A stretch of 33,932 bases of DNA, taken from NCBI GenBank assembly GCA_025964635.1, contig JAOPYP010000247.1, positions 1-33,932 of the forward strand, written 5' to 3'. The notes beneath the pieces are model-generated. The model was not told the DNA's origin. It made no database searches and saw only the letters and a program-made list of their open reading frames with translations. The stretch is from Actinomycetes bacterium (GTDB taxonomy: Bacteria; Actinomycetota; Actinomycetes; Streptosporangiales; Streptosporangiaceae). Made by a program: the position numbers and the translations under genes. Positions within the stretch are counted from its first letter, which is position 1. Each line of letters begins with the position of its first letter. Below, in pieces: positions 2,186-26,331 of this stretch.

Positions 2186-2203
2186 GGCGCCTCGAGCCCC
2201 AGC

Positions 2204-3357: not shown

Positions 3358-3369
3358 GCTTGATTGCTC

Positions 3370-4548: not shown

Positions 4549-4772
4549 AGTTCTGGGCAGGCTGAACTAGCCTCAAAGCCACGGTGTTTTCGCGGGCCGC
4601 TTTACTTATTACGTGGTCAGGTGTGGCCTGCCCGAGGCGGAAGGGGTTTATTGTGGGCCGCGCTTCCAGGGCAGCCAGTTACCGGGCTGCCCTGTGGCCA
4701 CGAGTCTTACGACACAACATGGCCGGCAGGTGAAATCCGGGACCGCTGTAGGTAAAGAAAGTACATCTAACT

Positions 4773-4789
4773 GCTACATATTCTGTAGA
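4773..4789. promoter_or_regulatory. BlaI-type operator-like palindrome GCTACAT-ATT-CTGTAGA
   Basis: The right arm is identical and the left arm matches 5/7 to the TCTACAG-N3-CTGTAGA sites at 18618, 18638 and 5870. It sits in a conspicuous A/T-rich patch (4745-4795) about 125 bp upstream of the first possible pstB start. Confidence 0.45.
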
Positions 4790-4915
4790 GGTTGCCCGAT
4801 CGAGCTGGCCAGCAGTAGTACCTGCTCCGTTAGCCTGGCGTTCGCTCAGGGTTTACCCGGGCTATTCGCCTGGGCCCGCACGGTGTCCTATTATTCGCGG
4901 TACCTGACGGCCGCG

Positions 4916-5806: not shown

Positions 5807-5869
5807 GCCACGGCCCGGGGCCACGCACCTCCCCGGGTCACGGAACGTCCGTATAGTGTCGAGGGATGT

Positions 5870-5886
5870 TCTACAGGATCCGTAGA
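5870..5886. promoter_or_regulatory. BlaI-type operator-like palindrome TCTACAGGATCCGTAGA upstream of dedA paralog 1
   Basis: Matches the site at 18638-18654 at 15 of 17 positions. It lies 20 bp upstream of the GTG start at 5907 and just downstream of a TATAGT -10-like hexamer (5852-5857). Confidence 0.6.
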
Positions 5887-5906: not shown

Positions 5907-6530
5907 GTGAGTACCAGCCACCTCATCACCAGCTACGGCTACTGGGCCGTGTTCGTCCTCGTCGGGCTGGAGAGCCTGGGCATCCCGCTGCCCGGTGAGA
6001 CCGCCCTGATCATCGCGGGGGCCTACGCCGGCAGCACCCACAACCTGTCTCCCTGGGCCATCTTCGCCGTTGCCTCCGCGGCGGCGATCGTCGGCGACAA
6101 CATCGGCTTCTGGATCGGCGGCACGGGTGGCTACCGGCTGGCCCGCGCCTACGGGCCCAAGATCCGGCTGGACGAGCGGAAGCTGAAGATCGCCCGGTAC
6201 CTGTTCGACACCTACGGCCCTAAGGTCGTGTTCTTCGGCCGGTTCACGGCCCTGCTGCGCACCTACGCCGCGTTCCTGGCCGGCGCCAGCCGGATGAGCT
6301 GGCGCCGGTTCCTGCCCGCCAACGCCGCGGGCGGGATCGTGTGGGCCGGGATCTACACGACCGCGGCGTACCTCGCGGGTGACACGCTGCGCCGCGTGTC
6401 CGGCACCATCAGCGTGGTGCTCACCGTCGCCGGGGTGCTGGCCATCGTGGCCGGGGGGCTGTTCATCCGCCGTCAGATGCGCAAGCTCGCCCCCCGGGCC
6501 GAGGCCGCCTACCCCGGCCCGCTCGACTAA
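5907..6530 (+). CDS. dedA: DedA family membrane protein (paralog 1)
   Basis: Full track ORF with a GTG start. N-terminus ITSYGYWAVFVLVGLESLGIPLPGE and FFGRFTALLRTYAAFLAG match DedA/SNARE-associated family hallmarks. Alignable with the second DedA at 16854..17489. Confidence 0.85.
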   Translation: MSTSHLITSYGYWAVFVLVGLESLGIPLPGETALIIAGAYAGSTHNLSPWAIFAVASAAAIVGDNIGFWIGGTGGYRLARAYGPKIRLDERKLKIARYLFDTYGPKVVFFGRFTALLRTYAAFLAGASRMSWRRFLPANAAGGIVWAGIYTTAAYLAGDTLRRVSGTISVVLTVAGVLAIVAGGLFIRRQMRKLAPRAEAAYPGPLD

Positions 6531-7323: not shown

Positions 7324-7330
7324 GCCGGCC

Positions 7331-8752: not shown

Positions 8753-8868
8753 CCAGGACAGAAGCGCCCTCATGTCAGTTCTCACATCGCTCTCAAACGG
8801 TCATTACATGGCCGGTGACGCACGCTCATCAGTGTCAGTAGGAATCACGCACTGAAAGGTGACACGTC

Positions 8869-9222
8869 ATGAGGATCACGCCAAAGATCGCCGCCTTCGC
8901 TGTCGCGGGCCTCGCCCTGGCCGCACCGGCGACCGCCATGGCCGCCAGTAACGGCGCGGCCCAGCACACCGGCGCCTCGCACTCGGTGGTGGCCAGCTCC
9001 GAGCCGGCCGGCCCGGATCACGACAGCATCCAGCAGGGCGACCAGACCAGCCCCGACACCGCGTCGGGGACGGTCAAGACGACGAGCAGCACGCCCACCC
9101 CCGAGCCGTCCTCCTCCGAAGGGGAGTCCAGCACGGGGAGCGAGTCGAGCGTCTCGGACGGCCCGGGCGGCCACGCCGACGCGTCGGGGAACGTGCAGTA
9201 CGAGTTCAACGGGGTCCAGTAA
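8869..9222 (+). CDS. Small secreted acidic Ser/Thr/Pro/Gly-rich protein, unknown function
   Basis: Full track ORF with a GAAAGGTG RBS. Sec signal MRITPKIAAFAVAGLALAAPATAMA with an AXA cleavage site. The mature part of about 90 aa is low-complexity, contains five His, and ends in GGHADASGNVQYEFNGVQ. A strong terminator follows. Confidence 0.65.
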   Translation: MRITPKIAAFAVAGLALAAPATAMAASNGAAQHTGASHSVVASSEPAGPDHDSIQQGDQTSPDTASGTVKTTSSTPTPEPSSSEGESSTGSESSVSDGPGGHADASGNVQYEFNGVQ

Positions 9223-9266
9223 CCCCGCCCCGGACTCCCGCCCGGCGCACGGCGACCGGGTAAGCC

Positions 9267-9307
9267 CAGGTGCGGGCGGCGAGCCTCAGGCTCGCCGCCC
9301 GCACCTG
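9267..9307. terminator. Bidirectional intrinsic terminator (perfect 19-bp stem)
   Basis: CAGGTGCGGGCGGCGAGCC (9267-9285), tca, GGCTCGCCGCCCGCACCTG (9289-9307). Located between the convergent genes ending at 9222 (+) and 9313 (-). Confidence 0.7.
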
Positions 9308-9312
9308 CGTGA

Positions 9313-11979
9313 TCAGAGGTCCCGCATGATGTCGGCGGCGGGCCGGCGTATCGCGCGGATGACGCTGACCCCGGTAGCCACGACGGCCCCGCAGGTCACG
9401 CCGCCCAGAGCGGCCAGATAGGCCCAGGGGACGAACAGGTGCGGTGGCGGCGGGTCGAACACCCCGGTCAGGATCTTCGTGATGATGAACGACAGTGCCC
9501 AGCCGGACAGCACACCCAGCAGGGCGCCGCCGATCGTCACGAAGACGGCCTCGCTCCACACGAACGAGGCGAGCTGGCGGGATCGTGCGCCCAGTGCGGC
9601 GGCGATCGCGAACGTGCGGCGCCGCTCGACCAGCCCGAGCGCCAGCACCAGGCCAGATGCCGCGGCCGCCAGGAGGAAGGCGAACGCCAGCTCCAGCCGG
9701 GTCAGGCCGGACAGGTCCAGCGCGGTCAGGCCGGACAGCGTGACCCTGAGCTGGGTGTTGATGTCCTGGACGACCGCCCCGGACGCCGGGCCCAGGATCC
9801 GCCGGACCTCCCGGGCCACCGCCGGGGGAGAGCCATTGGCCCGGACGAGCAGGTCCTGGTACGCCGGCGATCCGGTGGCCCGGGCCACATAAGAAGCGTT
9901 AGCGATGAAAAAGGAGTCCTTGGGTGCCGTGGGGAACTCCCGGACCACGCCCGCATAGTGGAAGGGAACGATGTGGTAGGTGTGATCCCGGGCGGACTGC
10001 ATCCGCAGCCGGAGCAGGTCACCCGGCCGGAGCTGGTAGTTGACCACGGTCTCCTGCGAGACCAGCACCGCGTCGGGATGCGCGGCCAGGGTGGCGAGCA
10101 CCCCGGCGGCGTTGCCGCCCTGGAAGAAGGCATCTGACATCGGCGTGGCCGTGCCGATGCGCGTGGGGTTGATCCCGTACAGGTCCTGCAGGTCGTTCCC
10201 GACGTACGCGAACCGGTGCATCATCGGCTGCACCGCGGCGACGCCGTTCAGCCGGCTGGTCGCGGCCAGCGCCCCCGGGGGCAGGCCGGTCGCGGCGGTG
10301 GTGGCGGCCGTCACATCCGCCCCGTTCGTGAGCTGGGCGTCGACCCGCGACTGCTGGGAGTAGGTCGTGTTGAAGATCGCCGTGGACACCGCGAACGAGG
10401 CCGTCAGCCCGATGATCATGAGACCGCGGGACAGCAGCCGCCGCTGCCGCGACATGGAGGCGGCCACCACCCCGGCCAGTTCACCCGCCAGCGGCCGGGT
10501 GGCCCGGGCCAGCAGGGGCCGCCCGCGGCTGAGGACCGCGGTGGAGATCCGCCAGGACAGCAGCGCCGCCCCGACCCAGAGCGCCAGCGGCGCCAGGAAC
10601 GTCGAGTAGTTCACCGAGATCGTCGCGACGCCTTCGGGGGCCAGCACGACCTGATACCCGCTCCGGACCGACTGCCAGAAAATGACCCCGGCCAGCGCCA
10701 GCAGCCAGACGTCCAGGTACAGCCGGGCCCACAGCGGGCGGCGGCCCCGCCCGACGACCCCGCGCGCGCCGCGTCCCGACAGGGAGCGGGCGTCCTTCCA
10801 CGCGGGGAGGCCGATGGTCAGCGCGGCCAGGATCAGCCCGGCGAGCGCCGCCACCGCGGCCCAGGCGACCGCCTGCCCCAGCGTCGAGCCGAATCGCGAG
10901 GCGCCGAACGTGAGCCGGCTGGCCAGTACGGCACCGGCCAGGCCGATGCCCGAACCGAGCACGCCGACCAGCAGGGCCTCGGCCCCGGCCAGCCCCACGA
11001 TGGTGCGTGGCGAGGCGCCCCGGATCCGCAGCAGCGCCTGCTCCCGGCGCCGCCGTTCCCCGCCCGCCGCGCCGATGACGGAGGTGAGCAGCGCGGCGAG
11101 GACCGCACCCGGCAGCCCGAGGAACAGGAACAGCAGTTCCGCGTACACCGCGTCGCCGCGGGCCGCGTCGAGCTGGGCGCTCAGGTTGTCACCGACGAGA
11201 CCGCCGCCGACCAGCTTCGCCTCGAGGTTCTTGGCCCGGGCCATGACATCCGCGAAGGCCGTCGCGGGATCGGGGGACAGGGCGGGCGACAGCTTGACGT
11301 GGTACTGGGTGGTCACCGCCGCGGGCTGGGTGCGCTGCAGCGGCGCGAACGCGGCCTGCCACTGCGCGGCCGGGAGCAGCACGACGTTGTCCGGGGGCGC
11401 CTGCGGCGCCGCCCCCGGAACCACGCCGACCGCCTGGAACATCGAGTCCGCGGCGGGCAGGTCCACGATGCCCTGGACCGGGACCCGCAGCGGCGGCAGC
11501 CCCTGCCGCCCGATGCTGATGACCGAGCCGATGGTCGCATGCAGGTTCGCGGCGGTCTGCTGGGCGAGCAGCACCCCGCTGCGCGCCCCGAGCAGGGGCC
11601 GGATCTCGCCCGGGAAGGCGCCCGCGTAGCCGGGGGGCAGGCCGAGCACCTTGCCGGGCCCGGTGGTCTGGACCGTCCCGGCGGATGAGGCGGTGATCCC
11701 GGTCGTCGGGGCGTAGCCGACCGGCACGCTCCTGACGACGCCCGGGGCGGACGCGATCGTCCGGCCGGCCGTGGCCGGATTCGTGCCGGGCGCGAGCTGA
11801 ACCTGCCAGTCCACGATCACGCCCGCGACGGCCTGCTTGGTCATGTGCGCCTTGCTCGAGGCGAAGAACGCGCCGAGTGAGCCGAGCAGGGCCACGGCGA
11901 TGGCGACCCCGATCACGGCGCCCGCCAAACGGGCCGGCCTGCGCTTGAGCAGGCCCCACAGCCAGGTCAGAGCGTACAT
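9313..11979 (-). CDS. ABC transporter permease with two fused FtsX/MacB-type modules (about 10 TM, two large extracytoplasmic domains)
   Basis: Full track ORF, 888 aa. N-terminal TM, then an extracytoplasmic domain of about 250 aa, three TM, further TM segments, a second extracytoplasmic domain of about 230 aa, and a C-terminal three-TM FtsX module. The start overlaps the stop of the upstream ATPase by 13 nt. Confidence 0.85.
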   Translation of the reverse strand: MYALTWLWGLLKRRPARLAGAVIGVAIAVALLGSLGAFFASSKAHMTKQAVAGVIVDWQVQLAPGTNPATAGRTIASAPGVVRSVPVGYAPTTGITASSAGTVQTTGPGKVLGLPPGYAGAFPGEIRPLLGARSGVLLAQQTAANLHATIGSVISIGRQGLPPLRVPVQGIVDLPAADSMFQAVGVVPGAAPQAPPDNVVLLPAAQWQAAFAPLQRTQPAAVTTQYHVKLSPALSPDPATAFADVMARAKNLEAKLVGGGLVGDNLSAQLDAARGDAVYAELLFLFLGLPGAVLAALLTSVIGAAGGERRRREQALLRIRGASPRTIVGLAGAEALLVGVLGSGIGLAGAVLASRLTFGASRFGSTLGQAVAWAAVAALAGLILAALTIGLPAWKDARSLSGRGARGVVGRGRRPLWARLYLDVWLLALAGVIFWQSVRSGYQVVLAPEGVATISVNYSTFLAPLALWVGAALLSWRISTAVLSRGRPLLARATRPLAGELAGVVAASMSRQRRLLSRGLMIIGLTASFAVSTAIFNTTYSQQSRVDAQLTNGADVTAATTAATGLPPGALAATSRLNGVAAVQPMMHRFAYVGNDLQDLYGINPTRIGTATPMSDAFFQGGNAAGVLATLAAHPDAVLVSQETVVNYQLRPGDLLRLRMQSARDHTYHIVPFHYAGVVREFPTAPKDSFFIANASYVARATGSPAYQDLLVRANGSPPAVAREVRRILGPASGAVVQDINTQLRVTLSGLTALDLSGLTRLELAFAFLLAAAASGLVLALGLVERRRTFAIAAALGARSRQLASFVWSEAVFVTIGGALLGVLSGWALSFIITKILTGVFDPPPPHLFVPWAYLAALGGVTCGAVVATGVSVIRAIRRPAADIMRDL

Positions 11980-12641
11980 GAGGTTCCCGTCTGGAGAATT
12001 CGCTCGGTCATGGTCCAGCGCAGCGGCAGCCGGTCGGCCATGGCCTGGTCGTGGGTGGCGACGACCAGCGCCGTGCCGGCCGCCTCGACGTGGCGGAACA
12101 GCACGTCCATCAGCCCCGCCGCGGCGGCGCGGTCCAGCTGCCCGGTCGGCTCGTCGGCCAGGATCAGCCGTGGTTCACCCATCAGCGCCCGGGCCATGCC
12201 GGCCCGCTGGGCCTGGCCGCCGGAGATCTCCTCGGGCAGCTTCGACGCCACCTCGGCCAGCCCGAGCTGCTCGATTAGGGCCTGGGCCGCCGCCGCGGCC
12301 GTGGCCTCCGCGGTGCCCGCGAGCAGCGCCGGCAGGGCCACGTTCTCGGCCACCGTGAGCGGGGGCAGCAGGCTGGGTCCCTGGAAGGCCAGGGCGACCG
12401 GGCCGGGCCGGAGATCCTCGGCCCGTCCGAGGGCGGGCCACTCGATGACCCCGGCCGACGGCTGGTCCAGCGCCGCGATTATGTGCAGCAGGGACGTCTT
12501 GCCGCTGCCGGACGGCCCGACCAGGGCGATGCGGTCGCCCGCGCAGATCTCGAACGTCGCGTCCGCGACCGCGACCACCGGGCGCTGGCCGTTGCCGAAC
12601 TCGCGCCGGAGCCCCTTGGCGCGCACCAGGACGTCATTCAT
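11967..12641 (-). CDS. ABC transporter ATP-binding protein (LolD/MacB-NBD type), copy B
   Basis: Full track ORF. Walker A GPSGSGKTS, Q-loop AFQGPSL, signature ISGGQAQR, Walker B LILADEPTGQLD, H-loop VVATHD. Overlaps the neighbouring genes on both sides. Confidence 0.9.
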   Translation of the reverse strand: MNDVLVRAKGLRREFGNGQRPVVAVADATFEICAGDRIALVGPSGSGKTSLLHIIAALDQPSAGVIEWPALGRAEDLRPGPVALAFQGPSLLPPLTVAENVALPALLAGTAEATAAAAAQALIEQLGLAEVASKLPEEISGGQAQRAGMARALMGEPRLILADEPTGQLDRAAAAGLMDVLFRHVEAAGTALVVATHDQAMADRLPLRWTMTERILQTGTSCTL

Positions 12642-13398
12642 CGGTGACCCTTCCGTCGACCATCCGCACGATCCGGTCGGCGGACGCGGCTACCCGCTCG
12701 CTGTGCGTCACGACCAGGACCGCTTTCCCGCGGTCCGCCCGGCCGCGCAGCAGCTCCAGTACCTGGGCCTCGGCCTGCCGGTCCACCTCACCGGTGGGCT
12801 CGTCGGCCAGCAGGACCGGCGGATCGTTAGCCATGGCCACGGCCAGGCCGGCCCGGGCGCTTTCGCCGCCGGACAGGGTGCTCGGCCGGGCCGAGGCGCG
12901 CTCTCCCAGGCCCACGTCGTCGAGCAGGGTCTGCCCGTCGGGACGGCTCCGCCCACCAGCCCCGGGGCCGCTCCAGGTCCCGGACTCTGGGTGGCCTCGC
13001 GGCTCCCCCACCGGTTCCTTCACCACCGGTTCCTTCACCACCAGGGCCTGCGCGGCCCGGATGTTCTGCACCACGCTGAGGTGCTCCAGGAGGTTGCCCG
13101 ACTGCAGCAGCATGCCGATCCACCGGGCCCGCAGCCTGGCCCGGGTGGCTTCGTCCCGCCGGCTGATCCGCTGCCCGGCGATCGTCACGTGCCCGCCGTC
13201 CGGCTCGTCCAGCCCGGCCAGGCAGGCCAGCAGGGTCGACTTCCCGCTCCCGGACGGGCCGACCACGGCGACCATCTCGCCCGCGTGCACGCTGACGGAC
13301 ACCCCGCGCAGCGCGAAGGTCTCGTCGTCACCGATGTGGTAGAAGCGGTACAGTTCGCGCCCGTCGATCAGCGGCCGGGCCTGCGCGGTTACTTCCAC
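12634..13398 (-). CDS. ABC transporter ATP-binding protein (LolD/MacB-NBD type), copy A, with a low-complexity insertion
   Basis: Track ORF 12634..13704 trimmed to the GTG at 13396-13398 (VEVTAQARPLIDGRELYRFY...), which overlaps the lipoprotein stop by 10 nt. Walker [11 protein letters not shown]-loop LLQSGNL, signature LSGGESAR, Walker B VLLADEPTGEVD, H-loop VVTHS. Confidence 0.85.
   Translation of the reverse strand: MEVTAQARPLIDGRELYRFYHIGDDETFALRGVSVSVHAGEMVAVVGPSGSGKSTLLACLAGLDEPDGGHVTIAGQRISRRDEATRARLRARWIGMLLQSGNLLEHLSVVQNIRAAQALVVKEPVVKEPVGEPRGHPESGTWSGPGAGGRSRPDGQTLLDDVGLGERASARPSTLSGGESARAGLAVAMANDPPVLLADEPTGEVDRQAEAQVLELLRGRADRGKAVLVVTHSERVAASADRIVRMVDGRVTDE
13009..13042 (-). repeat. 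In-frame 15-bp tandem duplication (about 2.3 units) encoding VVKEP-VVKEP-V inside ATPase copy A
   Basis: The plus strand reads caccggttccttcac caccggttccttcac cacc. Confidence 0.9.
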
Positions 13399-14066
13399 CG
13401 GAAACTCTCCGAGACGATGCGCCACGGATCGACGTTGTCCGACCCGACCGCGGACGACAGGTCGATGACGGCCCCCCGTCCGTGGCGGTAGAGCTCGAAC
13501 CGCTCGATCACCAGCCGGTACTGCCGTCCGGTGACCCCGTTGGGCGGGCTGTTGACCTGGTAGATGGTCTCGACCGCCGGGCCGCCGGCCAGCTTCACGG
13601 CCCGCACCGACTGCAGCCGGAAGGCCAGGGACTTGGCCTTCAGCGCCGGGACGGCGGTGGCCTGGACGGAGTGGACCGTGGGCGGGGCGGCCAGGGGCAT
13701 CCACGCGACGCTGATGGAGTTCAGGTTGCTGGTGAACGTCGAGCTGGCCGGGGTGGTCTTCCGCGACCAGCCCTCGGGCACCTTGATCAGGAGATGCCCG
13801 GGTGGCGACTGGTAGGTCACGTAGACGGTGGTGTCCGGGATGTCCCCGGGAGGGTTGCTCTCGGCGGCGACCGGGGCCTGGGAACCGCCCGGGCCCGGGC
13901 TGGAGGTGCCCGGGGTGGAGGGGGCCGGGGCGGAGGCCTTGGTGGTCCCGGCCACGGGGGTGGCGGACCCGGAGTTCCCGCAGGCGGCCAGCGCGGAGAG
14001 GAGACCCGCTGCGGTCAGGGCGATGCCCAGCCGCCGGGCCATGGGTGGGTTGCTGCTATCAGGCAT
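13389..14066 (-). CDS. Lipoprotein of unknown function (operon partner of the ABC system)
   Basis: Full track ORF; an alternative ATG lies at 14042. Lipobox LLSALAAC followed by a Pro/Ser/Thr-rich linker and a globular domain of about 140 aa. Its stop overlaps the ATPase start. Confidence 0.75.
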   Translation of the reverse strand: MPDSSNPPMARRLGIALTAAGLLSALAACGNSGSATPVAGTTKASAPAPSTPGTSSPGPGGSQAPVAAESNPPGDIPDTTVYVTYQSPPGHLLIKVPEGWSRKTTPASSTFTSNLNSISVAWMPLAAPPTVHSVQATAVPALKAKSLAFRLQSVRAVKLAGGPAVETIYQVNSPPNGVTGRQYRLVIERFELYRHGRGAVIDLSSAVGSDNVDPWRIVSESFRWK

Positions 14067-14067
14067 G

Positions 14068-14085
14068 CCCCGGTTTTTACCGGGG
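14068..14085 (-). other. Short hairpin CCCCGG-TTTTTA-CCGGGG between HK2 and the lipoprotein gene
   Basis: Read directly: 6-bp GC stem with a 6-nt A/T loop, 2 nt upstream of the first possible lipoprotein ATG. Possible attenuator or processing site. Confidence 0.3.
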
Positions 14086-14122
14086 GGCAGATGAAGCGAC
14101 GATGAAGCCGCCGCGGCCCGGA

Positions 14123-15523
14123 TCAGCCGGAGGAGGCTGAGGCGGAACTCAGGCCGGCGCTGGGAACCGGCAGACGATCGAGGGCCAGGATCATGGTGAC
14201 CCGGGCCCCGCCCGGCACGTTCTCCGCGGTGGCCCTCCCGCCGTGCGCCCGCGCTACCGCCTGGACGATGGCCAGTCCCAGCCCGGCCCCAGAGTGCGAC
14301 GTGACGTCAGTCTCACCCCGGACGAACGCCTCGAACGCCCGGGGCAGCAGGGCATCGCCGAAACCCGGTCCGGTGTTCTCCATCCGGACCGTCGCCACCT
14401 CACCGGACACGGTCGCGCCGACCCGGATCAGCCCGCCGGTCTCCGGGCCGTAGCGGATCGCGTTGTCCAGCAGGTTGTCGAGCGCCTGGCGGACCCGCAT
14501 GGGATCGACCGGGATCTCCATCGCCGGGGCGGCGCACTCGATCCGCACCCCCCGGTCCTGGGCCCGTGCCCGGTGGCCCGCGCAGGCGCGGCTGAGCAGA
14601 TCCTGCAGGGAGGTGCTCATCCGGTGGATGCGGAAGCCGCCCGCCCGGGCCCGGGACAGCACCAGCAGGTCCTCGGCCAGCCGGGCCAGCCGGTCGGTCT
14701 CCTCTGACGCGCTCCGCAAGGCCGCTTCGAGCTCCCGGGCCTCCCGGGGACGCGACAAGGTCAGGTCCAGTTCGGCCTTCAGGATGCTGAGCGGCGTCCG
14801 CAGTTCGTGGCTCGCGTCATCGAGCACGCGCTGTTCCCGGTCTCTCGCGTCCTGCAGCCGGTCGAGGAGCGAGTTCAGGGTCCGGCCCAGCCGGGCGATC
14901 TCGTCTTTCGCGGCCGGTACCGGGAGTCGCCGGCTGGGCTGGGACACCGAGATCGCGGCGGCCTCCCGGCGCATGCGCTCGACGGGCCGCAAGGCGGCCC
15001 CGGCCAGCACCCAGGCGGCCAGGCAGGCCAGGGCCAGCGCAGCCGGGCCGGCCGTCTCCAGCAGCAGCCGGAGGCTGGCCAGCGTCTGGCTGACCTCGGT
15101 CATGGCCGACCCGACCACCACGAAGAGCGGCTGCCCCTCGGTGGTCGGCAGGACGAACGCCCGGAGGACGGGGCGGCCCGGCGCCGCGGGGATGGCCATG
15201 AACTGCGGTTCGCGGATGGCCCGCAGCGCCGCAGCGGACAGGGTCGGTCCCGCGAGCCCGCGGGATATCTGCACCTGGCCGGCGGGCGTGAGGATCTGGG
15301 TCAGGCCGCCAGCCCAGCTGTCGGGTGTATCCAGGCCGGCCGGCCCGGCCCGGCCGATCCCCGAGGCGATCACCTCCGCCCGGGTCCGCAGCGCGGAATC
15401 GGCGGTCCGGACCAGCTCCGCCTGCAGCCGCGCGTACACGAAGAAGCTGAGCGCCGCGAGGATCAGGGCGATGCTCGCCGCCGAGGCCAGCGTGACCCGG
15501 ACGCGGAGCGGGACGCGCCTCAT
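14123..15523 (-). CDS. Sensor histidine kinase (pair 2)
   Basis: Full track ORF. Its ATG overlaps the RR2 stop (ATGA). Same architecture as HK1: two TM segments, extracytoplasmic domain, HAMP, H-box ASHELRTPL, N-box DNLLDNAIRYGP, G2 GAGLGLAIV. Confidence 0.9.
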   Translation of the reverse strand: MRRVPLRVRVTLASAASIALILAALSFFVYARLQAELVRTADSALRTRAEVIASGIGRAGPAGLDTPDSWAGGLTQILTPAGQVQISRGLAGPTLSAAALRAIREPQFMAIPAAPGRPVLRAFVLPTTEGQPLFVVVGSAMTEVSQTLASLRLLLETAGPAALALACLAAWVLAGAALRPVERMRREAAAISVSQPSRRLPVPAAKDEIARLGRTLNSLLDRLQDARDREQRVLDDASHELRTPLSILKAELDLTLSRPREARELEAALRSASEETDRLARLAEDLLVLSRARAGGFRIHRMSTSLQDLLSRACAGHRARAQDRGVRIECAAPAMEIPVDPMRVRQALDNLLDNAIRYGPETGGLIRVGATVSGEVATVRMENTGPGFGDALLPRAFEAFVRGETDVTSHSGAGLGLAIVQAVARAHGGRATAENVPGGARVTMILALDRLPVPSAGLSSASASSG

Positions 15524-16188
15524 GCGCGGAGCCGGTAGCCCGCGCCGCGGATGGTCTCGATCGACTGCGTGCCGAAGGGCCGGTCGATCTTGTCCCGCAG
15601 GATCCGCACGTACACGTCCACGACGTTCGAGTCACCCGCGCCCGCGAAGTCCCAGACGTGCTCCAGGAATCTCGCCCGGGAGATCACCTGGGCCGGGTGC
15701 CGCATGAAGTACTCGAGGATGGCGAATTCCTTGGCCGCCAGGCTGATCGCCGTGGTTCCCCGGCAGACCGTGCGCGCCGCGGGGTCGAGCCGGAGGTCGC
15801 CCACCGCCAGGATGGCCGGCCGCTCGCCCGGGTTGCGCCGGACCAGGGCCCTGACCCGGGCCCGGAGTTCCTCGATGCTGAACGGCTTCGTGAGGTAGTC
15901 GTCGGCGCCGACGTCCAGGCCGCGCACCCGGTCCGGGACTGCCTCGCGGGCGGTCAGCATGAGGATCGGCATCCAGCGCGCCCGTTCCCGGAGCTGCCGG
16001 CAGACGTCGAAGCCGTCGATATCCGGCAGCCCGATGTCCAGGATGACCGCGTCGAAGTCGCACTCGCTGGCCATCCACACGGCCTCGTTGCCGGTGGCCT
16101 GGACGTCGACCGCGTACCCGTCCTCACGGAACGCCCGCTGCAGCAGGGTCGCCATCTTGGCTGTGTCCTCGACGACTAGGAGGCGCAC
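15520..16188 (-). CDS. OmpR/PhoB-family response regulator (pair 2)
   Basis: Track ORF 15520..16233 trimmed to the GTG at 16186-16188, which is preceded by GGGGAGG. Roughly half of its positions are identical to RR1 by eye ([37 protein letters not shown]). Confidence 0.9.
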
Positions 16189-16404
16189 AGCCGTGCCTCC
16201 CCTGCAGTGCGTCCGCGCACGGTACTCCCTCACTCTGGCCGGCAGGCGCTGAGGTCACCGAGCGTATACACGACGGCCCGTGCGCACGGCCAGATGCGCG
16301 GAGCGCCCTCCCACGTGACCCTAGGCCGGGAACATGAGAGATTCGTGAACGGCCTTCACGGCGCCCGCCTGACCCGGCCCGGATCCTCTCTAGGATCACC
16401 AGGT

Positions 16405-16920
16405 ATGCCAGAACCGACCGCCGGGGTCGTCGAGATCTTCACGGATGGTGCGTGCTCCCCCAATCCGGGCCCGGGCGGATGGGGAGCCATCCTGCGGTAT
16501 GGCCGCCATAGCAAGGAGATCTACGGCGGGGAGCCGGCGACCACGAACAACCGGATGGAAATCATGGCGGCCATCCAGGGGCTGGAGAGCCTGACCCGGC
16601 CGTCGGCCGTGCACGTGCACACCGACAGCGAGTACCTGCGCAAGGGCATCACGCAGTGGCTGCCCACCTGGAAGCGCAATGGCTGGCAGACCACGGAGAA
16701 GAAGCCAGTCAAGAACGCCGACCTGTGGATGCGGCTGGACTCAGCGACCCGGGACCACGCCGTTCAGTGGTTCTGGGTCAAGGGTCACGCGGGACATCCG
16801 GAAAACGAGCGCGCCGACGAGCTGGCCGGCCGTGGGTCCGCGGAAGCCGCCGCTCACGACCCGGCCGCGTGCCGCCCGGACGTGTCCGCCGCCGGCTCGG
16901 CCCGGCGCGCCCGCAGGTAA
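16405..16920 (+). CDS. rnhA: Ribonuclease HI
   Basis: Track ORF 16207..16920 trimmed to the ATG at 16405. Motifs [39 protein letters not shown] and [14 protein letters not shown]. The C-terminal tail overlaps the convergent dedA. Confidence 0.9.
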
Positions 16921-17489
16921 CGCCACACGGCGATGGCCAGGGCGATCACCACGATGGCGGCGATGATGTAGGTCGGGCCCTTGAAGCCGTCGACGATCGA
17001 GTGCCAGTTGGCGCCGACCGCGTAGCCGGCGTAGGCCAGTGCCGCCGTCCAGGGGATGCAGCCGATGGTGGTGTAGATCCCGAACCGGACCGGGTCCATG
17101 TCCGCGATGCCCGCGGGCAGCGAGATGAAGGTCCGGATCACGGGCAGCAGGCGGCCGATCAGGACGGCCCGCGGGCCGTAGCGATCGAACCACGCGTTGG
17201 CCCGGTCGAGTTCGTGCTCACGGATCCGCAGCCGGGCGCCCCACCGCCGCAGCGCGGGCTGGCCGCCGTAGCGGCCCACGGCCCAGGCGACGTAGCTGCC
17301 GACGACGTTACCGAGAACGCCGGCGATGATCACGCCGGCCAGGTTGAGTTTCGTTCCGGGGACGGCCCCGGCGGCCAGCGCGCCGCCGAACGTCATGATC
17401 AGCTCGGAGGGAATCGGGATGCACGCCGACTCCAGCAGCATGAGCAGGAAGATGGCGAGGTACCCGTACGTGGCGATCAGATGCTGCAT
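16854..17489 (-). CDS. dedA: DedA family membrane protein (paralog 2), translationally coupled to uppP
   Basis: Full track ORF. Motifs [25 protein letters not shown] and [18 protein letters not shown]. Its ATG overlaps the uppP TAA (TAATG at 17487-17491). Confidence 0.85.
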
Positions 17490-18505
17490 TACTTCACCAG
17501 GCCTAGGTAGAGGACGCTGGCCACGCCAGCGATCAGGCAGTAGACCCCGAACGGGGTGAGGGTGCGGGTCCGCAGGTACCGGAGAAGAAAGCGTACCGAC
17601 AGGTACGCCCCGACGCCGGACAGCACGCTGCCGAGCAGGATCTGGCCGCGGATCCCGCTGCCGAGCGGGCCGAGCAGGTCAGGGATCTTCAGTGCGCCGG
17701 CAGCCAGGATAACCGGAGTGGCCAGCAGGAAGGCGAACCGGGCCGCATCCTCGCGGGACAGCCCGCGCGCCATGCCGGCGACCATGGTGACCCCGTCCCG
17801 GCTGATGCCGGCCAGCAGGGCCAGGATCTGCGCGGAGCCCACCACGACCGCCCGCGGGTAGCCCATCTGGGCCAGCCGCCGGTCGGCCTGGATCGCCTCA
17901 GCCTGCTCCTGCTGGCGCACCGTGCGGTCCCCGGCGCGGGCATGGGCCCCCGCCGGGCTCCGGCCCGCGGCCACGAGTTCTGGCTCGCGGGCCTGGATCA
18001 GCCCGGGGTCCCGTTCCGCGGCGATCACGGCGTCGGCGGCCCGCGAGGCCCGGCTGCGGTAGCGTTCCCCGGCGATGAGGATGACGCCGTTCACCGCGAG
18101 GAAGATGCCCGCGATGATCGGCTTGCCGAAGATCACCCGGAACGCGTGCTCGAACAGCAGGCCGACGATCCCGACCGGGATGGTGGCCAGGATGATCATC
18201 CAGGCCAGCTTCTGGTCCTCGGTGCGCACCCGGCGGTCCCGTATCGAGCTGAAGAAGCCACCGATGATCCGGATCCAGTCCCGCCAGAAGTAGATGAGGA
18301 GCGCGATCGCGGTGGCCACGTGCAGCCCGACGATGAACGCGAGATAGGGCGACTCAGTGGCGGACACGTTGAGGTCGCGGGCCCAGGACCCGCCGATGAT
18401 GGCCGGGATCAGCACGTTGTGGCCGAGGCTGGAGACCGGGAACATCTCGGAGACGCCCTGGACGAGGCCGACCACGGCCGCCTCCAGGTAAGTCAGTTGT
18501 GTCAT
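17489..18505 (-). CDS. uppP: Undecaprenyl-diphosphate phosphatase (UppP/BacA)
   Basis: Track ORF 17489..19321 trimmed to the ATG at 18503-18505 (MTQLTYLEAAVVGLVQGVSEMFPVSSLGH...) with a GAAGGG RBS. Second signature LAGISRDGVTM. Carries a hydrophilic insertion of about 60 aa mid-protein. Confidence 0.9.
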   Translation of the reverse strand: MTQLTYLEAAVVGLVQGVSEMFPVSSLGHNVLIPAIIGGSWARDLNVSATESPYLAFIVGLHVATAIALLIYFWRDWIRIIGGFFSSIRDRRVRTEDQKLAWMIILATIPVGIVGLLFEHAFRVIFGKPIIAGIFLAVNGVILIAGERYRSRASRAADAVIAAERDPGLIQAREPELVAAGRSPAGAHARAGDRTVRQQEQAEAIQADRRLAQMGYPRAVVVGSAQILALLAGISRDGVTMVAGMARGLSREDAARFAFLLATPVILAAGALKIPDLLGPLGSGIRGQILLGSVLSGVGAYLSVRFLLRYLRTRTLTPFGVYCLIAGVASVLYLGLVK

Positions 18506-18617
18506 GCCAGGCCCTTCACTGAAAGATCGATGTGGTGCTCCACGTCCCCTCACCGGCGGGATGCGCTGCTCGGCTCGCCGGGCGGGAAGCCTGGGTGGCA
18601 TACTCGAAGGCGTGGGT

Positions 18618-18654
18618 TCTACAGTAACTGTAGAGCATCTACAGGATTTGTAGA
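18618..18654. promoter_or_regulatory. Tandem BlaI-type operators TCTACAGTAACTGTAGA and TCTACAGGATTTGTAGA
   Basis: Sites at 18618-18634 (perfect 7-bp arms) and 18638-18654 (6/7), with centres 20 bp apart, in the 177-bp divergent region between uppP and the blaI-like gene. They contain the TACA/TGTA half-sites typical of BlaI/MecI/CopY operators. Confidence 0.65.
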
Positions 18655-18682
18655 TCCTATCCGAGCATGAGAGGCGGCCGGC

Positions 18683-19141
18683 GTGGGTGGTGAAGGTCCC
18701 CGGCAGGCGCCCGGCGTCGAGCGGCGGGCGGCCGGGGCGCTGGAAGCCGAGATCCTCGCGATCCTGCGCGAGGCGGACGGCCCGCTCAGCCCCGGTGAGG
18801 TCCGCCAGCGGCTCACGCCCCGGCCGCCCGCGGACGAGGGACCCCAGGGAGAGCTGTCGTACAGCACGGTGGTGACCATCGTGTCCCGGCTGCACGCCAA
18901 GGGCCTGCTGGCCCGCCAGCGGGCCGGCCGCGGGTTCACCTACACGCCGCTCGACGACGCGAGCCTGGCCGCCAGCCGCATGGCCCAGGTGCTGCTCGGC
19001 AGCGAAAACGATCACGACGCGGTGCTCAGCCGGTTCGTATCCGGGCTTTCCAGCCGGGACGCCCGGCTCCTCCGCCAGCTGCTGGCGGGGGACACCGGCG
19101 CGGCCGGCGCCGATCCACGCCCGGCCGGGGAACAGGGGTAG
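18683..19141 (+). CDS. BlaI/MecI/CopY-family transcriptional repressor
   Basis: Full track ORF with a GTG start and a GAGAGG RBS. Winged-helix pattern LEAEILAILREADGPLSPGEVRQRL...LSYSTVVTIVSRLHAKGLLARQRAGRGFTYTPL plus a C-terminal helical dimerisation region. Confidence 0.85.
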   Translation: MGGEGPRQAPGVERRAAGALEAEILAILREADGPLSPGEVRQRLTPRPPADEGPQGELSYSTVVTIVSRLHAKGLLARQRAGRGFTYTPLDDASLAASRMAQVLLGSENDHDAVLSRFVSGLSSRDARLLRQLLAGDTGAAGADPRPAGEQG

Positions 19142-19145
19142 GCAC

Positions 19146-20090
19146 ATGTGGCTGCTGTACCTGCCCCTGGTGATCCCGGCCCTGGCCGGAGCGACCGCCC
19201 GCCCGCTCGCCACCCGCCTGGAGCCGCGCCACGCGACCTGGCTGCTCACCTCCGCCGCCGTGGCCCTGGCCGCGTGCAGCATGGCCGCGCTGGCGCTGCT
19301 CGCCGCGTACGCCGCCGCCAAGGCGCCCTTCCTGGCCGCGGCCGGGGGCTACTCGCAGGAGGTCATGCGGCGCGGTGACCCGATTTCCGCGGCCGCGGGC
19401 GCGGCCGCCGCGCTGGCCCTCACCGGGGGCGCCGTGGCGGTCGCGGTGATGTTCCGCAACCGGGCCCGGGCCCTGGCCGAGTCGTACCGGCGCGCCGCCG
19501 GGCTGCAGCCCGAGGACGGCATCGTCGTCGTGCCCGGCCCGGCCATCGAGGCGTACGCGCTGCCCGGCCTGCCGGGCCGCATCGTGGTCTCGGGGCGCCT
19601 GCTCGACTGCCTGGACGACCGCCGCCGGGCCGCGCTCATCGCTCACGAGCAGGCCCATCTGGCCAGCCGGCATCATCTGTTCAGCGCCGTGGCCCGCCTC
19701 GCCGCCGCGGCCAACCCGCTGCTGATCCCGGTGGCCCGCGCGGTCGATTACACCGTGGAGCGCTGGGCTGACGAGCACGCCGCCTCCGTGACCAGCGACC
19801 GCAGGCTGGTGGCCCAGACCATCGGCCAGGTGGCCCTCCTGGCCGGGACCCGCCGCGAGCGGGTGGCCGGGATGGCCCTGGGCATCATCGGGCCGCGCGC
19901 CCCGCGGGTCTCGCTGGCCTGGGCCGGCCCCGTGCCCCGCCGCGTTGCCGCCCTGCTCACCGCACCGCCGCGGCGCCAGACCATCCTCCTCGCCGCGTGC
20001 ACGGTGATCGTCCTGATGGCCGGGGTAGCCGCCCTGCTCGCGGCCCGGGACCTGCACGCCCTGCTCGAACTCGCCCAGGGCACCCGGTAG
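19146..20090 (+). CDS. BlaR1/M56-like membrane zinc metalloprotease lacking a penicillin-binding sensor domain
   Basis: Full track ORF that starts 4 nt after the repressor stop. Four predicted TM segments, HEQAH zinc motif and a downstream ERWADE glutamate. At 314 aa there is no room for a C-terminal transpeptidase-like sensor. Confidence 0.85.
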   Translation: MWLLYLPLVIPALAGATARPLATRLEPRHATWLLTSAAVALAACSMAALALLAAYAAAKAPFLAAAGGYSQEVMRRGDPISAAAGAAAALALTGGAVAVAVMFRNRARALAESYRRAAGLQPEDGIVVVPGPAIEAYALPGLPGRIVVSGRLLDCLDDRRRAALIAHEQAHLASRHHLFSAVARLAAAANPLLIPVARAVDYTVERWADEHAASVTSDRRLVAQTIGQVALLAGTRRERVAGMALGIIGPRAPRVSLAWAGPVPRRVAALLTAPPRRQTILLAACTVIVLMAGVAALLAARDLHALLELAQGTR

Positions 20091-23157: not shown

Positions 23158-26100
23158 CTACGGGGTTCCGCTGTAGGCGGGGTCGATGGCCTCGATGCGG
23201 ATCCGCGCCGACTCGGCCTCCGGCACGCCGAGCCGTTCGAAGATGTCGAGCGCCTGCCGCAGGACGATCCGCGCGGCGTCCGGGCGCCGGGTGCTCAGCG
23301 TCGTTTCCGCGATTCCCTCGAGGATTTTGGCCTCCTCGTAGGGGTCACCGATCTCCCGGGCCAGCCTGAGGGCGGTGTGGTAATGATCGAACGCCTCGCC
23401 GTACCGGCCGGAACCCCGGCTCACGCCGGCTATCCCGCGCAGTGCCGTCACCTGCTGGGACAGGTTCCCGGTCTCCCCGGCGATCGATTGTGCTTTCTCG
23501 TGGCAGACCAGCGCCTCGTCGTAGCGATCAGCGCTCTGGTAAATGGCGCCGATATCGTTGAGGACGGCCGCTTCATTGGGAAGATCGCCGATGTCATGGT
23601 AGATGGCCAGGGCGCGGCCATAAGCGGTGAGCCCGTCCTCGTAGCTGCCCTTGTAATGGTAGACAGCCCCTATGTTGTGGTACAGGATCGCCTGGTTCTG
23701 CGCCCCGCCTATCTCGCGGAATATGCCCAGCGACTGCTGGTATCTCTCGAGGGCGTCCCGGTGGTAGCCGAGATACAGCTGCATCCGGCCCAGATTGTTC
23801 AGGGTCTTCGCCTGGCCGCGCCGGTCGCCGGCCTCCTGGTAGAGCGCCAGCGCCTCGCGCAGATGCTCCATGGCGTCGGGGTAGCGCCCGAGCTGCCAGG
23901 ACGCGATCCCGGAGTGGCTCAGCGTGGTGGCCACGCCGTGCTGGTCGCCGGTGTAGTGGAACAGGATCCGTGCCTCGTGGAAATGGGCCAGGGCCTCACG
24001 GGATCGTCCCGCCCGCTGGTGGGCCATGCCGGTCTGATCGAGGGCCTCGGCCTCGCCGCGCCGGTCGGACAGTGACCGGTAGATCGCGGCCGCGTCCTCG
24101 GCCAGGGGCAGGGCCGCCTCGTAGCGGCCGGTCTGCTGGCTCACCTCGCTGAGTTCCAGGGACGCCCGGGCCGTCCTGTCCGGATCGGCGAGGTCGCGGC
24201 TGGCCTGCAAGGCCCCGGTGTGGGCCGCGATCGCCTCACCCCAGTACGCCCCGATCTCCATGAATCCGGCCAGTGCGTGGGTGAGATCCGCGCACTTCTG
24301 CTTCCATTCGTGCCGCCCCGCGTGGTGCGCCGCCTGCAGGATGTTGCGCCACTCCGCTTCCAGCCAGGCGGCCGCGTCTTCCTCGCTGCGCAGCGCGGGG
24401 CCCGCCGTCGGCGGCTGGCTGCCCGGAAGCGGAATCCGGCGCCGGAACGGATGCAGGACCTGGTCCGCCTCGGTCGCGGTATGCAGGTAGTAGTCGAGCA
24501 GCCTGCCGACGGCCTGCCGCTGCTCGGACCGGGAATCCTCCTCCGCCGCGCGCATGGCCGCGTACCCGCGGATGAGGTCGTGGAAACGGAACTGGCCGGC
24601 CGGGGCCGGGGTCAGCAGATGGTGGTCGAGCAGGGCGGCGAGGGCTGTCTCCGCGTCGGCCAGGGTGCCTCCGCCCAGGGCCGCTGCCGCCTGCACGCTG
24701 ATGTGAGCGCAGGGGCTCACGCCCAGCCGCCGGAAGAACCGCTGGTGCGCCGGTTCCAGCGCCCGGTAGGCGAGGTCGAAGGCCGACATCACCTCCGGGC
24801 TGGCCGAGCCGGCGCTGTCCAACCGGGTGGGGGACTGCGACAGTTCCTGGACCAGTTCGCCGAACCTGGGCGGATAGTCCTGCGCGAGCCTGCCCGCGGC
24901 AAGCTGGATCGCGAGCGGCAGCCGCCCGCACAGCCGGACGGCCATAGCGGCCTCCCCCTCGTCGTCGGCGGTGCCGTGGCCCGCGACCCTCTGCAGCAGC
25001 GTGATCGCGTCGTCCACCGGCAGCGCATCCAGGGTCAGCGCGCGGGCACCCACCAGGCCAGGGAACGTGCGCCGGGTGGTGATCAGGATCAGGCATTCGC
25101 CTGCCTCAGGCAGGAGCGGGCGGATCTGGTCGTGCTGGCCCGCATCGTCGAGGATCACGATGGCGCGGCGGCGGCTCAGCTGGGCCCGCAGCAGCGCGGC
25201 GCGCTCGCCGAAGGCATCGGGTAGCTGGGTGGCCGGCGCGGTCAGCATCCGGAGCAGGCGGTGCAGGGCCTCGTCAGCGTCGAGCGACGGGTGCCCGGGG
25301 TCGTGCGTATGGAGGTTGAGGTAGAACGTCCCGTCCGGGTACTGCCCGGCGACGGCCCGGGCCGCGTGGATGGCCAGCGCCGTCTTCCCCACCCCGGCCA
25401 TGCCCTCGATGACGCTGATCTGCGGGACGTCCCCCTGGTCCCGGCTGAGACCATGCTGCCGGGTGAGCAGGTCGAGTTCCTCGCCGCGGCCCACGAACTC
25501 CGCCGTCTCGGGCGGAAGCGTGTCTGGCCGCAAGATCCGGCCCTGACGCAGGCTCCCCTGACGCAGGCGGCCCGGGCGCACGGCCAGCCCGGGGTCGTGG
25601 CGCAGGATGCGCTGATGCAGTTCGGACAGCAGGGGGCCTGGTTCCGTGCCCTGCTCCTCGATGAGGCGGCCGCGGATGTCCCGGTAGAGGCTGAGGGCCT
25701 CACCCGGCCTGCCGCTGCCGTAGAGGGCCGTCATCTGGTGGGCGATGAACGCCTCATCCAGCGGGTACTGCGCCAGCAGATGGCGGAGCTCACCGACCAG
25801 GTCGGCGTGACGGCCAAGCTCCAGTTCGCACTCGATGCGCTTGAGGATCGCCGCCCGGCGTTCCTCGTCCAGGCTGTGGCGCATCCGCGCCACCCAGTCG
25901 CCGCGGATCCCCGCGAAGGCCTGGCCTCGCCAGAGCCGGGCCGCCTCACGCAGCAGCGAGGCGGCGCGCTCGCAGTCGCCGTCGGCGGCCAGCACATCCG
26001 CCTGCCGGCGCAGGCGACGGAACTGGTGCAGATCAATGGTCTCCGGGGCGACGTCGAGTTCGTAGCCGCTGTCGCGCCCCGTCAGCCGGACACTCTCGCC

Positions 26101-26331
26101 AATGGCCTGCCGTAGTGACGCCCGGAGCCTCGTGATGTAGACGGAAAGGCTCTCCCGGGCCTTTGGCGGAGGCCGCGTATCCCAGACCCGGTCAATGAGA
26201 ACGTCCGTCGGCACTAAAGTGCGCGGCGTGAGCATGAGGATAGCCAGGACGCATCGCACCCTGGTTGGCCCAAGATCACGTTGCTGCCCGGCCGACCACA
26301 GTTCAATGGGCCCGAGCACCCGAAATTCCAT
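23158..26331 (-). CDS. AfsR-like SARP regulator (OmpR-type wHTH + BTAD + NB-ARC ATPase + TPR array)
   Basis: Full track ORF, 1057 aa. N-terminus MEFRVLGPIELW...DVLIDRVWD...SLSVYITRLR, BTAD region, Walker A GMAGVGKTALA, Walker B AIVILDDA, and a C-terminal half made of repeated TPR-like units. Confidence 0.9.
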   Translation of the reverse strand: MEFRVLGPIELWSAGQQRDLGPTRVRCVLAILMLTPRTLVPTDVLIDRVWDTRPPPKARESLSVYITRLRASLRQAIGESVRLTGRDSGYELDVAPETIDLHQFRRLRRQADVLAADGDCERAASLLREAARLWRGQAFAGIRGDWVARMRHSLDEERRAAILKRIECELELGRHADLVGELRHLLAQYPLDEAFIAHQMTALYGSGRPGEALSLYRDIRGRLIEEQGTEPGPLLSELHQRILRHDPGLAVRPGRLRQGSLRQGRILRPDTLPPETAEFVGRGEELDLLTRQHGLSRDQGDVPQISVIEGMAGVGKTALAIHAARAVAGQYPDGTFYLNLHTHDPGHPSLDADEALHRLLRMLTAPATQLPDAFGERAALLRAQLSRRRAIVILDDAGQHDQIRPLLPEAGECLILITTRRTFPGLVGARALTLDALPVDDAITLLQRVAGHGTADDEGEAAMAVRLCGRLPLAIQLAAGRLAQDYPPRFGELVQELSQSPTRLDSAGSASPEVMSAFDLAYRALEPAHQRFFRRLGVSPCAHISVQAAAALGGGTLADAETALAALLDHHLLTPAPAGQFRFHDLIRGYAAMRAAEEDSRSEQRQAVGRLLDYYLHTATEADQVLHPFRRRIPLPGSQPPTAGPALRSEEDAAAWLEAEWRNILQAAHHAGRHEWKQKCADLTHALAGFMEIGAYWGEAIAAHTGALQASRDLADPDRTARASLELSEVSQQTGRYEAALPLAEDAAAIYRSLSDRRGEAEALDQTGMAHQRAGRSREALAHFHEARILFHYTGDQHGVATTLSHSGIASWQLGRYPDAMEHLREALALYQEAGDRRGQAKTLNNLGRMQLYLGYHRDALERYQQSLGIFREIGGAQNQAILYHNIGAVYHYKGSYEDGLTAYGRALAIYHDIGDLPNEAAVLNDIGAIYQSADRYDEALVCHEKAQSIAGETGNLSQQVTALRGIAGVSRGSGRYGEAFDHYHTALRLAREIGDPYEEAKILEGIAETTLSTRRPDAARIVLRQALDIFERLGVPEAESARIRIEAIDPAYSGTP

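Follow-up and report, generated by a model that had tools for sequence, protein, structure and literature searches.

The BlaI–BlaR1 and MecI–MecR1 systems of Staphylococcus aureus and Bacillus licheniformis place a repressor gene directly 5' of the gene for a protease with four transmembrane (TM) helices and an HExxH site, opposite a divergent target operon. Two CTACA/TGTAG-type dyad operators lie in the common promoter, the regulators control their own synthesis, and the repressor carries a phenylalanine at its cleavage site. These features recur, in part as predictions, at a locus in contig JAOPYP010000247.1 of an Actinomycetes bacterium of the family Streptosporangiaceae (assembly GCA_025964635.1), of which a stretch of 33,932 nucleotides (the window) was analyzed. 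The window has a G+C content of 71%, and its nearest relatives are uncultured Streptosporangiaceae from soil metagenomes. However, the protease encoded here lacks a penicillin-binding sensor, its first extracellular loop (EL1) has 24 instead of 41 residues, and the residue in front of the putative cleavage bond (P1) is Arg rather than Asn. The half-sites are 5 nt apart, in contrast to the 2 nt of mec and cop operators, and the output is uppP and dedA (PAP2 genes in relatives) rather than blaZ or mecA. As judged by comparative sequence analysis, the locus probably encodes an autoregulated, BlaI/BlaR1-type proteolytic derepression system for the recycling of undecaprenyl phosphate (C55-P) and undecaprenyl pyrophosphate (C55-PP).

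The lack of a sensor, to which the initial annotation of the window had drawn attention, is real but is not a peculiarity of this protein. A transpeptidase domain is present in only about 6% of some 15,000 M56 proteins; most commonly, no C-terminal domain is recognizable, and 96% of the proteins are encoded near a BlaI-like gene (PMC13492132). The sensor-less systems characterized are BlaIR of Mycobacterium tuberculosis and M. abscessus, CenIR of Clostridioides difficile and PvmSR of Pseudomonas aeruginosa (bioRxiv 10.64898/2026.08.03.742534), and their regulons leave the signal unrevealed. The M. tuberculosis pair BlaI (Rv1846c)/BlaR (Rv1845c) resembles the present one in being actinobacterial, in containing the closest solved relative of the repressor and in its protease without a sensor (PMC13492132). 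However, its reported regulon, comprising blaC, sigC and ATP synthase genes (PMC8265638, PMC12565901), is free of lipid-carrier genes, which form the output here. CenIR and other sensor-less BlaIR systems likewise combine a BlaI-like repressor with an M56-like protease devoid of a transpeptidase domain and are linked to the envelope (PMC13492132). The CenIR regulon gives no clue to its input, whereas the defined pathway adjoining the present pair suggests one.

In Firmicutes, genes acting on C55-P and C55-PP are controlled by sigma-M and sigma-X (bcrC and uptA), BceRS–BceAB and BcrR–bcrABD. The present locus resembles these systems in its predicted output, namely a C55-PP phosphatase, a C55-P flippase and, in some relatives instead, FtsX-type ABC transporters; in Firmicutes, all three are induced upon attack on the lipid II cycle. 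However, the Firmicute regulators are extracytoplasmic function sigma factors, two-component systems and a one-component membrane regulator, in contrast to the protease–repressor pair found here. Natural products such as bacitracin and amphomycin-class lipopeptides target the carrier cycle, which comprises the UppP and PAP2 phosphatases and the recently recognized DedA flippases. To our knowledge, no regulator of undecaprenyl-phosphate recycling has been described in Actinobacteria. A full-text literature search, with subscription journals outside its scope, found none and returned no link of BlaI/BlaR to uppP, bacA, bcrC/PAP2 or dedA, in agreement with the suggestion that this wiring had not been reported. 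Neither bacitracin nor vancomycin nor moenomycin is reported to induce the bacA homologue of Streptomyces coelicolor (Hesketh 2011). The machinery at the locus is thus known, and the new part is the output regulon.

Repressor and sensor-less membrane protease

The repressor is a full-length protein of the BlaI/MecI family. It scores 62 bits against Pfam Penicillinase_R (PF03965; cut-off 22.6) over profile positions 2–114 of 115, bearing out the initial annotation, which had read the open reading frame (ORF) as a BlaI/MecI/CopY winged-helix repressor. A family profile built from 16 sequences matches M. tuberculosis BlaI (2G9W, 2.5e-17), MecI (7e-8) and S. aureus BlaI (3e-5) over the full length of the repressor, and also B. 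licheniformis BlaI and CopR. The family keeps the recognition helix LSYSTVVT..SRLH.KG and a conserved C-terminal motif, DR.AVL(S/T)RFV..LS..D..LLR.LL. Within this family, R117-F118 is invariant in 16 diverse homologues and aligns with N101-F102 of MecI; in S. aureus BlaI, cleavage has been mapped to the N-F bond, and the P1' Phe hardly varies among BlaI proteins (PMC9834060).

TACA/TGTA inverted repeats, which are conserved upstream of the repressor gene, are the predicted binding sites of this protein. The resemblance of these half-sites to the cop box and the sole NCBIfam match of the repressor, to CopY/TcrY (TIGR02698), could together speak for a copper-responsive system of the CopY type. 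However, the match reaches 25 bits, far below the cut-off of 122, and no gene for a copper ATPase or copper chaperone lies nearby, leaving such a system with practically no probability. The identity with CopY itself is rejected, as the repressor has no cysteine and therefore lacks the C-terminal Cys-rich metal site of CopY.

The protein encoded 4 nt downstream was expected from the initial annotation to be a 314-residue four-TM protein with an HEQAH zinc site, and it is. Its chain ends 14 residues after TM4, excluding a sensor domain, and a Pfam search detected no penicillin-binding/transpeptidase-like domain (PF00905) in it. H167, E168 and H171, together with the ERWADE motif (205–210), are invariant in 128 protease sequences, and GPVPRRVAALL (261–271) is invariant or nearly so in 77–128 homologues, indicating that the active site is intact. 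An AlphaFold2 model based on a shallow 16-sequence alignment (identity at least 76%) reached a predicted local distance difference test score (pLDDT) of 49.7 and was discarded, whereas the model from the 128-sequence alignment reached a pLDDT of 86 and a predicted template modelling score of 0.84. The helices of this model (2–24, 27–59, 82–117 and 279–312) fit TM1–TM4, and a gluzincin domain separates TM3 from TM4. According to the positive-inside rule, the catalytic domain would be cytoplasmic, and only EL1 (residues 57–80) and the last 14 residues would face outward.

The top Foldseek matches of the model in the PDB are the cryo-EM structures of S. aureus BlaR1 (8EXQ, 8EXS and 8EXT; probability 0.97–1.00), aligned over 228–235 columns that include the TM helices. 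The 24-residue counterpart of BlaR1 EL1 is conserved as (R/K)xPxxAxxGx(W/Y)S...DP, and the C-terminal tail is conserved as well. The conservation of both segments in a protein without a sensor domain to dock fits sensing at the membrane surface. Together, the sequence features support a BlaR1 layout minus the sensor domain.

Tandem palindromes and proposed promoter geometry

The spacer between the repressor gene (blaI) and uppP (18506–18682, 177 bp) contains the two 17-bp palindromes that had been proposed as operators (Table 1), with centres 20 bp apart and a gap of 3 nt between them. Both carry the TACA/TGTA half-sites of the family, here as CTACA/TGTAG separated by 5 nt. The initial impression that they stand out also proved correct: a pattern scan of the window with up to two mismatches gave eight strand-matches at four sites against 0.02 expected, and none of 100 shuffled controls reached eight. 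TACA-N5-TGTA occurs three times, against 0.00 expected.

The occurrence of the motif at orthologous loci was examined in 80 related loci, gathered from species-representative genomes with the protease as query. The tandem motif is carried by 59 of them, and the stack of these promoters contains only four conserved blocks, namely TGGCATACT, the arms of operator 1, those of operator 2, and a TA(G/T)CAT block flanking operator 2 on its right. The arm columns are 90–99% conserved, whereas the 5-nt spacers are 40–70% and the remaining intergenic DNA 30–50% conserved, a pattern expected of protein-binding sites. The tandem palindromes therefore behave as operators, to which the repressor would bind. 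Their centre spacing is 20 bp throughout the close clade. Across 975 kb of loci, TCTAC-N5-8-GTAGA occurs approximately 125 times, nearly always upstream of blaI, against about 0.5 occurrences expected from base composition. The exact 17-bp pattern seemed absent from distant pairs with proteases about 50% identical, found in Streptomyces, Streptantibioticus, Actinocrinis, Actinomadura, Kitasatospora and Actinoallomurus; direct inspection revealed 15–16-bp variants with the same TCTAC/GTAGA arms, again as tandem operators, 18–19 bp apart, with the 16-bp ones spaced at 19 bp.

Nearly every promoter in the stack of 59 contains the TGGCATACT block as (G)TGGCA(T/C/G)ACT, and the distant clade retains CATGGCA(G/C)ACT upstream of the operators. 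It may be read as an extended -10 element (TGn plus CATACT) directed toward blaI, which would place the operators at about +5 to +45. On the minus strand, the hexamer beside operator 2 keeps its TA in about 80% of the stack, and TAnnnT-like hexamers also flank operator 2 in the distant clade. Several loci have the start codon of uppP only 18–37 nt to the left of the TGGCATACT block, where a uppP promoter would not fit outside the operator region. The arrangement suggests that two promoters face each other across the operators, with the minus-strand hexamer as a candidate uppP -10 element. The promoter of the unlinked dedA2 gene has the geometry of the blaI promoter, with one operator instead of two.

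The fourth site of the window does not have the spacing of a -10 element followed by 12–13 nt that the other sites have. It lies in a 457-bp intergenic region of lower GC content (4522–4978), 5' of an orphan pstB-like ATPase gene (4979–5806). The region is 91% identical to the related locus L081, where the arms of the site are retained and its spacer is altered (GCTACATATCATGTAGA), and it has no Rfam match. Three 11-nt units within it, GTTCGCTCAGG, GTTTACCCGGG and CTATTCGCCTG, resemble PHO boxes of PhoP and are candidates for such sites; pstS and permease genes are encoded close by on the opposite strand (1232–3373).

Table 1. Coordinates of the genes, putative operators and promoter elements discussed (positions in the window)
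Feature	Position	Strand	Description
dedA1	16854..17489	-	DedA/VTT membrane protein; second gene of the uppP–dedA operon; Pfam VTT_dom 6e-26
uppP (bacA)	17489..18505	-	Undecaprenyl-diphosphate phosphatase, 338 aa; Pfam BacA 2.2e-68
blaI-like repressor gene	18683..19141	+	152 aa, no cysteines; Pfam PF03965 (Penicillinase_R) 8.3e-17
Gene for BlaR1-like membrane zinc protease without sensor	19146..20090	+	314 aa; HEQAH at 167–171; Pfam M48 8e-13
dedA2	5907..6530	+	Second DedA-family gene, unlinked; Pfam VTT_dom 1e-17; proposed regulon member
Operator 1	18618..18634		TCTACAGTAACTGTAGA; perfect 7-bp arms
Operator 2	18638..18654		TCTACAGGATTTGTAGA
Third site	5870..5886	+	TCTACAGGATCCGTAGA; single operator in the dedA2 promoter, about 20 bp 5' of dedA2
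Fourth site	4773..4789		GCTACATATTCTGTAGA; in a long intergenic region
TGGCATACT	18596..18604	+	Extended -10-like block, conserved, separated from operator 1 by 13 nt; putative blaI–protease promoter
TAGGAT	18654..18659	-	-10-like hexamer beside operator 2, TAGCAT/TATCAT in relatives; candidate uppP promoter element
dedA2 promoter	5852..5886	+	TATAGT (5852–5857), 12 nt, then TTCTACAGGATCCGTAGAA; GTG start at 5907

Lipid-carrier genes beside the pair and across relatives

The divergent operon, in which the dedA1 start and the uppP stop overlap by 1 nt, had been annotated as uppP–dedA, and both assignments hold. UppP exceeds the cut-off of the NCBIfam equivalog NF001395 (467.8 bits versus 394), and DedA1 has a VTT_dom match. 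DedA1 is a candidate C55-P flippase resembling UptA, and both DedA1 and DedA2 may have flippase activity, as reported for DedA proteins (PMC12561984). UppP contains an inserted Arg/Ala/Glu-rich middle segment (residues ~160–205), which makes it longer (338 aa) than the 257-position Pfam profile. As it matches the 306-position NCBIfam subfamily NF001395, the insertion is a trait of the subfamily.

The blaI-like gene lies directly 5' of the protease gene in 79 of the 80 loci, with a gap of 4–15 nt, and a cognate BlaI-family gene stands beside the protease gene in nine of nine cultured-genome contexts. A survey of synteny, which the initial annotation had suggested, showed that a UppP, DedA and/or PAP2 (BcrC-like) gene adjoins the pair in 73 of the 78 loci with upstream sequence, a fraction that overstates independence because the loci of the close clade share ancestry. 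The neighbours are divergent uppP and dedA (38 loci), uppP only (19), dedA only (9), PAP2 only (3), divergent dedA and PAP2 (1) or downstream dedA and PAP2 (3).

The informative events are the rearrangements, not the raw counts. PAP2 takes the place of UppP in Streptomyces fildesensis and in a Streptantibioticus metagenome-assembled genome, and the partner is PAP2-DedA in S. coeruleorubidus, DedA-PAP2 in Streptosporangium subroseum, PAP2 alone in Actinoallomurus and Kitasatospora sp. NBC_01287, and DedA-BacA in Actinomadura (L076 and L169). UppP and the PAP2/BcrC-type enzymes both dephosphorylate C55-PP but are not homologous. The exchange of these isofunctional enzymes, together with the DedA flippases, makes lipid-carrier recycling the common denominator, and the link to this pathway that had been proposed from the window recurs across genera.

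Operators also occur away from the blaI promoter. In Actinocrinis, tandem operators follow the protease gene and precede a dedA gene located downstream of it. A second promoter module at locus L008 (TGGCACACT and tandem operators, 2660–2696) lies 85 bp upstream of a PAP2 gene (1791–2576, minus strand) with no blaI to its right; the weak best NCBIfam matches of this PAP2 protein are undecaprenyl-diphosphatases. An ORF beside this module (2653–2973, minus strand) resembles an N-terminal transposase remnant, suggesting that the module was duplicated or moved. At locus L040, tandem operators (3576–3612) lie just 3' of the protease gene; the 3.7-kb contig ends there, cutting off the putative target gene.

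The dedA2 gene was compared with 80 DedA2-like loci from metagenomes. All seven close orthologues (86–99% protein identity) have a promoter composed of GTATA(G/T)T, 12 nt and TTCTACA-N5-CGTAGAA, and in two of the seven both the -10 element and the operator persist although an insertion precedes the start codon. TCTAC-N6/7-GTAGA is present within about 160 bp upstream in approximately 27 of the 80 loci. DedA2 orthologues (70–71%) are encoded within the blaI-divergent dedA operon at L033 and L041. At eight DedA2-like loci (L087, L090, L098, L104, L106, L123, L125 and L149), an operator-like site lies about 115 bp upstream of dedA2-like genes. Between this site and the start codon come a GC-rich hairpin (AACCCGGATGTGCACGGGGGCCGCACATCCGGGTTAC), which is conserved, and then a block reading GGTAGCAG..GTTACATCC, a different leader architecture.

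These distributions bear on the possibility that the palindromes serve the blaI–protease operon only, with uppP–dedA adjacent through inherited synteny. Such pure autoregulation would account for the nearly constant distance from the operators to the blaI start (25–35 bp), compared with 45–150 bp to the uppP start. However, it is very improbable, as the operator is also found 5' of the unlinked dedA2 (in the window and in seven of seven orthologues), of the PAP2 gene at L008 and of the downstream dedA in Actinocrinis, and as no space remains for a uppP promoter where its ATG is so close to TGGCATACT. A regulatory link connecting the repressor, the operators and the lipid-carrier genes is highly probable.

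Several other genes of the window lie near these operons. Two OmpR/HisKA two-component systems flank the genes for two ABC ATPases and an 888-aa MacB_PCD/FtsX permease (9313–13704, minus strand, with 6637–8752 on the plus and 14123–16233 on the minus strand), close to dedA2 and uppP–dedA1. In Kitasatospora and S. violascens, the same kind of permease and ATPase diverges from blaI–protease pairs. Beside the copy in the window, no operator was found. The region from 6637 to 16233 looks like a neighbourhood for defence against envelope antibiotics. Approximately 3 kb downstream of the protease gene, a 1057-aa regulator with SARP/BTAD, NB-ARC and TPR domains is encoded (23158–26331, minus strand), and an NB-ARC/TPR protein is also found 3' of the protease gene in Actinomadura rubteroloni (L169, 5018–7075). 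A search of the whole window at the Rfam gathering threshold gave no match, so no riboswitch or leader explanation is seen, and a PADLOC search for defence systems gave no meaningful match.

Proposed mechanism, its input and its significance

In the proposed mechanism, dimers of the BlaI-like repressor would bind the two CTACA-N5-TGTAG operators between the two facing -10-like elements. As the operators are 20 bp apart, the dimers would lie on the same face of the helix, and from their position between the elements they would block both the blaI–protease and the uppP–dedA1 operons. The unlinked dedA2 would be blocked via its single operator, at the same position relative to the -10 element. 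Upon an envelope signal, the protease would cleave the repressor, probably at R117-F118, leading to the production of more C55-PP phosphatase and candidate C55-P flippases. Repressor binding, cleavage and the direction of regulation are all predicted from sequence, as is the signal.

Several observations weigh against this mechanism. The protease passes the Pfam M48 threshold (49 bits versus 20.3) and misses that of M56 (PF05569; 16.6 bits versus 31), so that of the initial label "BlaR1/M56-like" the BlaR1 layout stands, but the family profile does not. In addition, the structural matches to BlaR1 are weak (E 0.05–0.17; template modelling score 0.34–0.39). DedA1 has two UptA equivalog models as its top NCBIfam matches, with scores (142 and 121 bits) below their cut-offs (250 and 300), and DedA2 scores best against the generic DedA model rather than UptA. 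A generic scan of the 177-bp spacer for sigma-70 promoters and terminators called nothing, so the promoter model is built on conservation. The TGGCATACT block could also be read on the minus strand (GAGTAT) as the uppP -10 element, with operator 1 covering its -35 region; in either arrangement, bound repressor would lie inside the RNA polymerase footprint for both directions. Regarding synteny, the shared ancestry of the close clade reduces the weight of the counts, and five loci have none of the UppP, DedA or PAP2 genes beside the pair. The partner is an ABC ATPase with an 850-aa MacB/FtsX permease, behind the same operators, in three of nine cultured-genome contexts, which suggests that the theme of the family may be antibiotic defence in general and widens it to defence against lipid II-cycle antibiotics.

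The M48 match raises the further possibility that the protease is a co-expressed HtpX-like quality-control enzyme and that a small ligand or another protease releases the repressor. The M48 proteins Ste24 and BepA follow BlaR1 closely among the Foldseek matches, and sequence and profile searches of the PDB did not reach BlaR1, giving only a weak match to the M48 structure 3C37. NCBI names most cultured homologues "M56 family metallopeptidase", some "M48" and one "Protease HtpX". However, an HtpX-like role is improbable in view of the position of the gene, 4–15 nt behind blaI in all but one of the 80 loci, and of the presence of a BlaI-like gene no more than five genes away from about 96% of M56 proteins (PMC13492132). 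BlaR1 is moreover the top structural match, over about 230 columns, and the repressor retains the cleavage-site Phe. A BlaR1-type protease acting on the repressor is thus the preferred reading.

For the input of this protease–repressor pair, the likeliest candidate is a disturbance of the lipid-carrier cycle, such as the accumulation of C55-PP or C55-P, or their sequestration by bacitracin-like or amphomycin-like antibiotics, at the outer leaflet. It is the most economical guess because of the composition of the regulon, and the chances that it names the signal correctly are evenly balanced. The same machinery might instead respond to general cell-wall damage, caused by beta-lactams or peptidoglycan fragments, with the lipid-carrier genes as part of a broader envelope-stress output. 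A signal of this kind has been proposed for the sensor-less M. tuberculosis BlaI/BlaR pair, whose BlaI is the closest solved relative of the repressor. Furthermore, a peptidoglycan fragment is reported to contribute to the inactivation of B. licheniformis BlaI (PMC3305447), and some paralogous pairs adjoin ABC transporters rather than genes acting on C55-P. However, no beta-lactamase or penicillin-binding protein gene adjoins the pair in the window or at the loci with identified neighbours. The neighbours that do occur (C55-PP phosphatases, DedA proteins and FtsX-type transporters) point to antibiotics that bind lipid II-cycle intermediates, not to beta-lactams, and a general wall-damage signal is considered unlikely.

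With the lipid-carrier cycle as the favoured input, a tentative and rather doubtful extension is that the protease itself is the carrier receptor. In this case, EL1 and the amphipathic C-terminal tail would read the level of C55-PP, C55-P or antibiotic–carrier complexes on the outer leaflet and thereby set the rate of repressor cleavage.

Collectively, the locus bears on the input of sensor-less BlaR proteins, an open question raised in 2026 (PMC13492132), because a regulon confined to a single pathway yields a testable hypothesis for that input. The system is present in cultured, genetically tractable genera, including Streptomyces, Kitasatospora, Streptosporangium and Actinomadura, and its operator–promoter region could be used as a biosensor of antibiotics directed against the lipid II cycle. 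If the protease is indeed a carrier receptor, the system would constitute a direct homeostat of C55-P supply, and it would provide the first defined ligand class for the BlaR-like proteins without beta-lactam binding, which make up approximately 94%.

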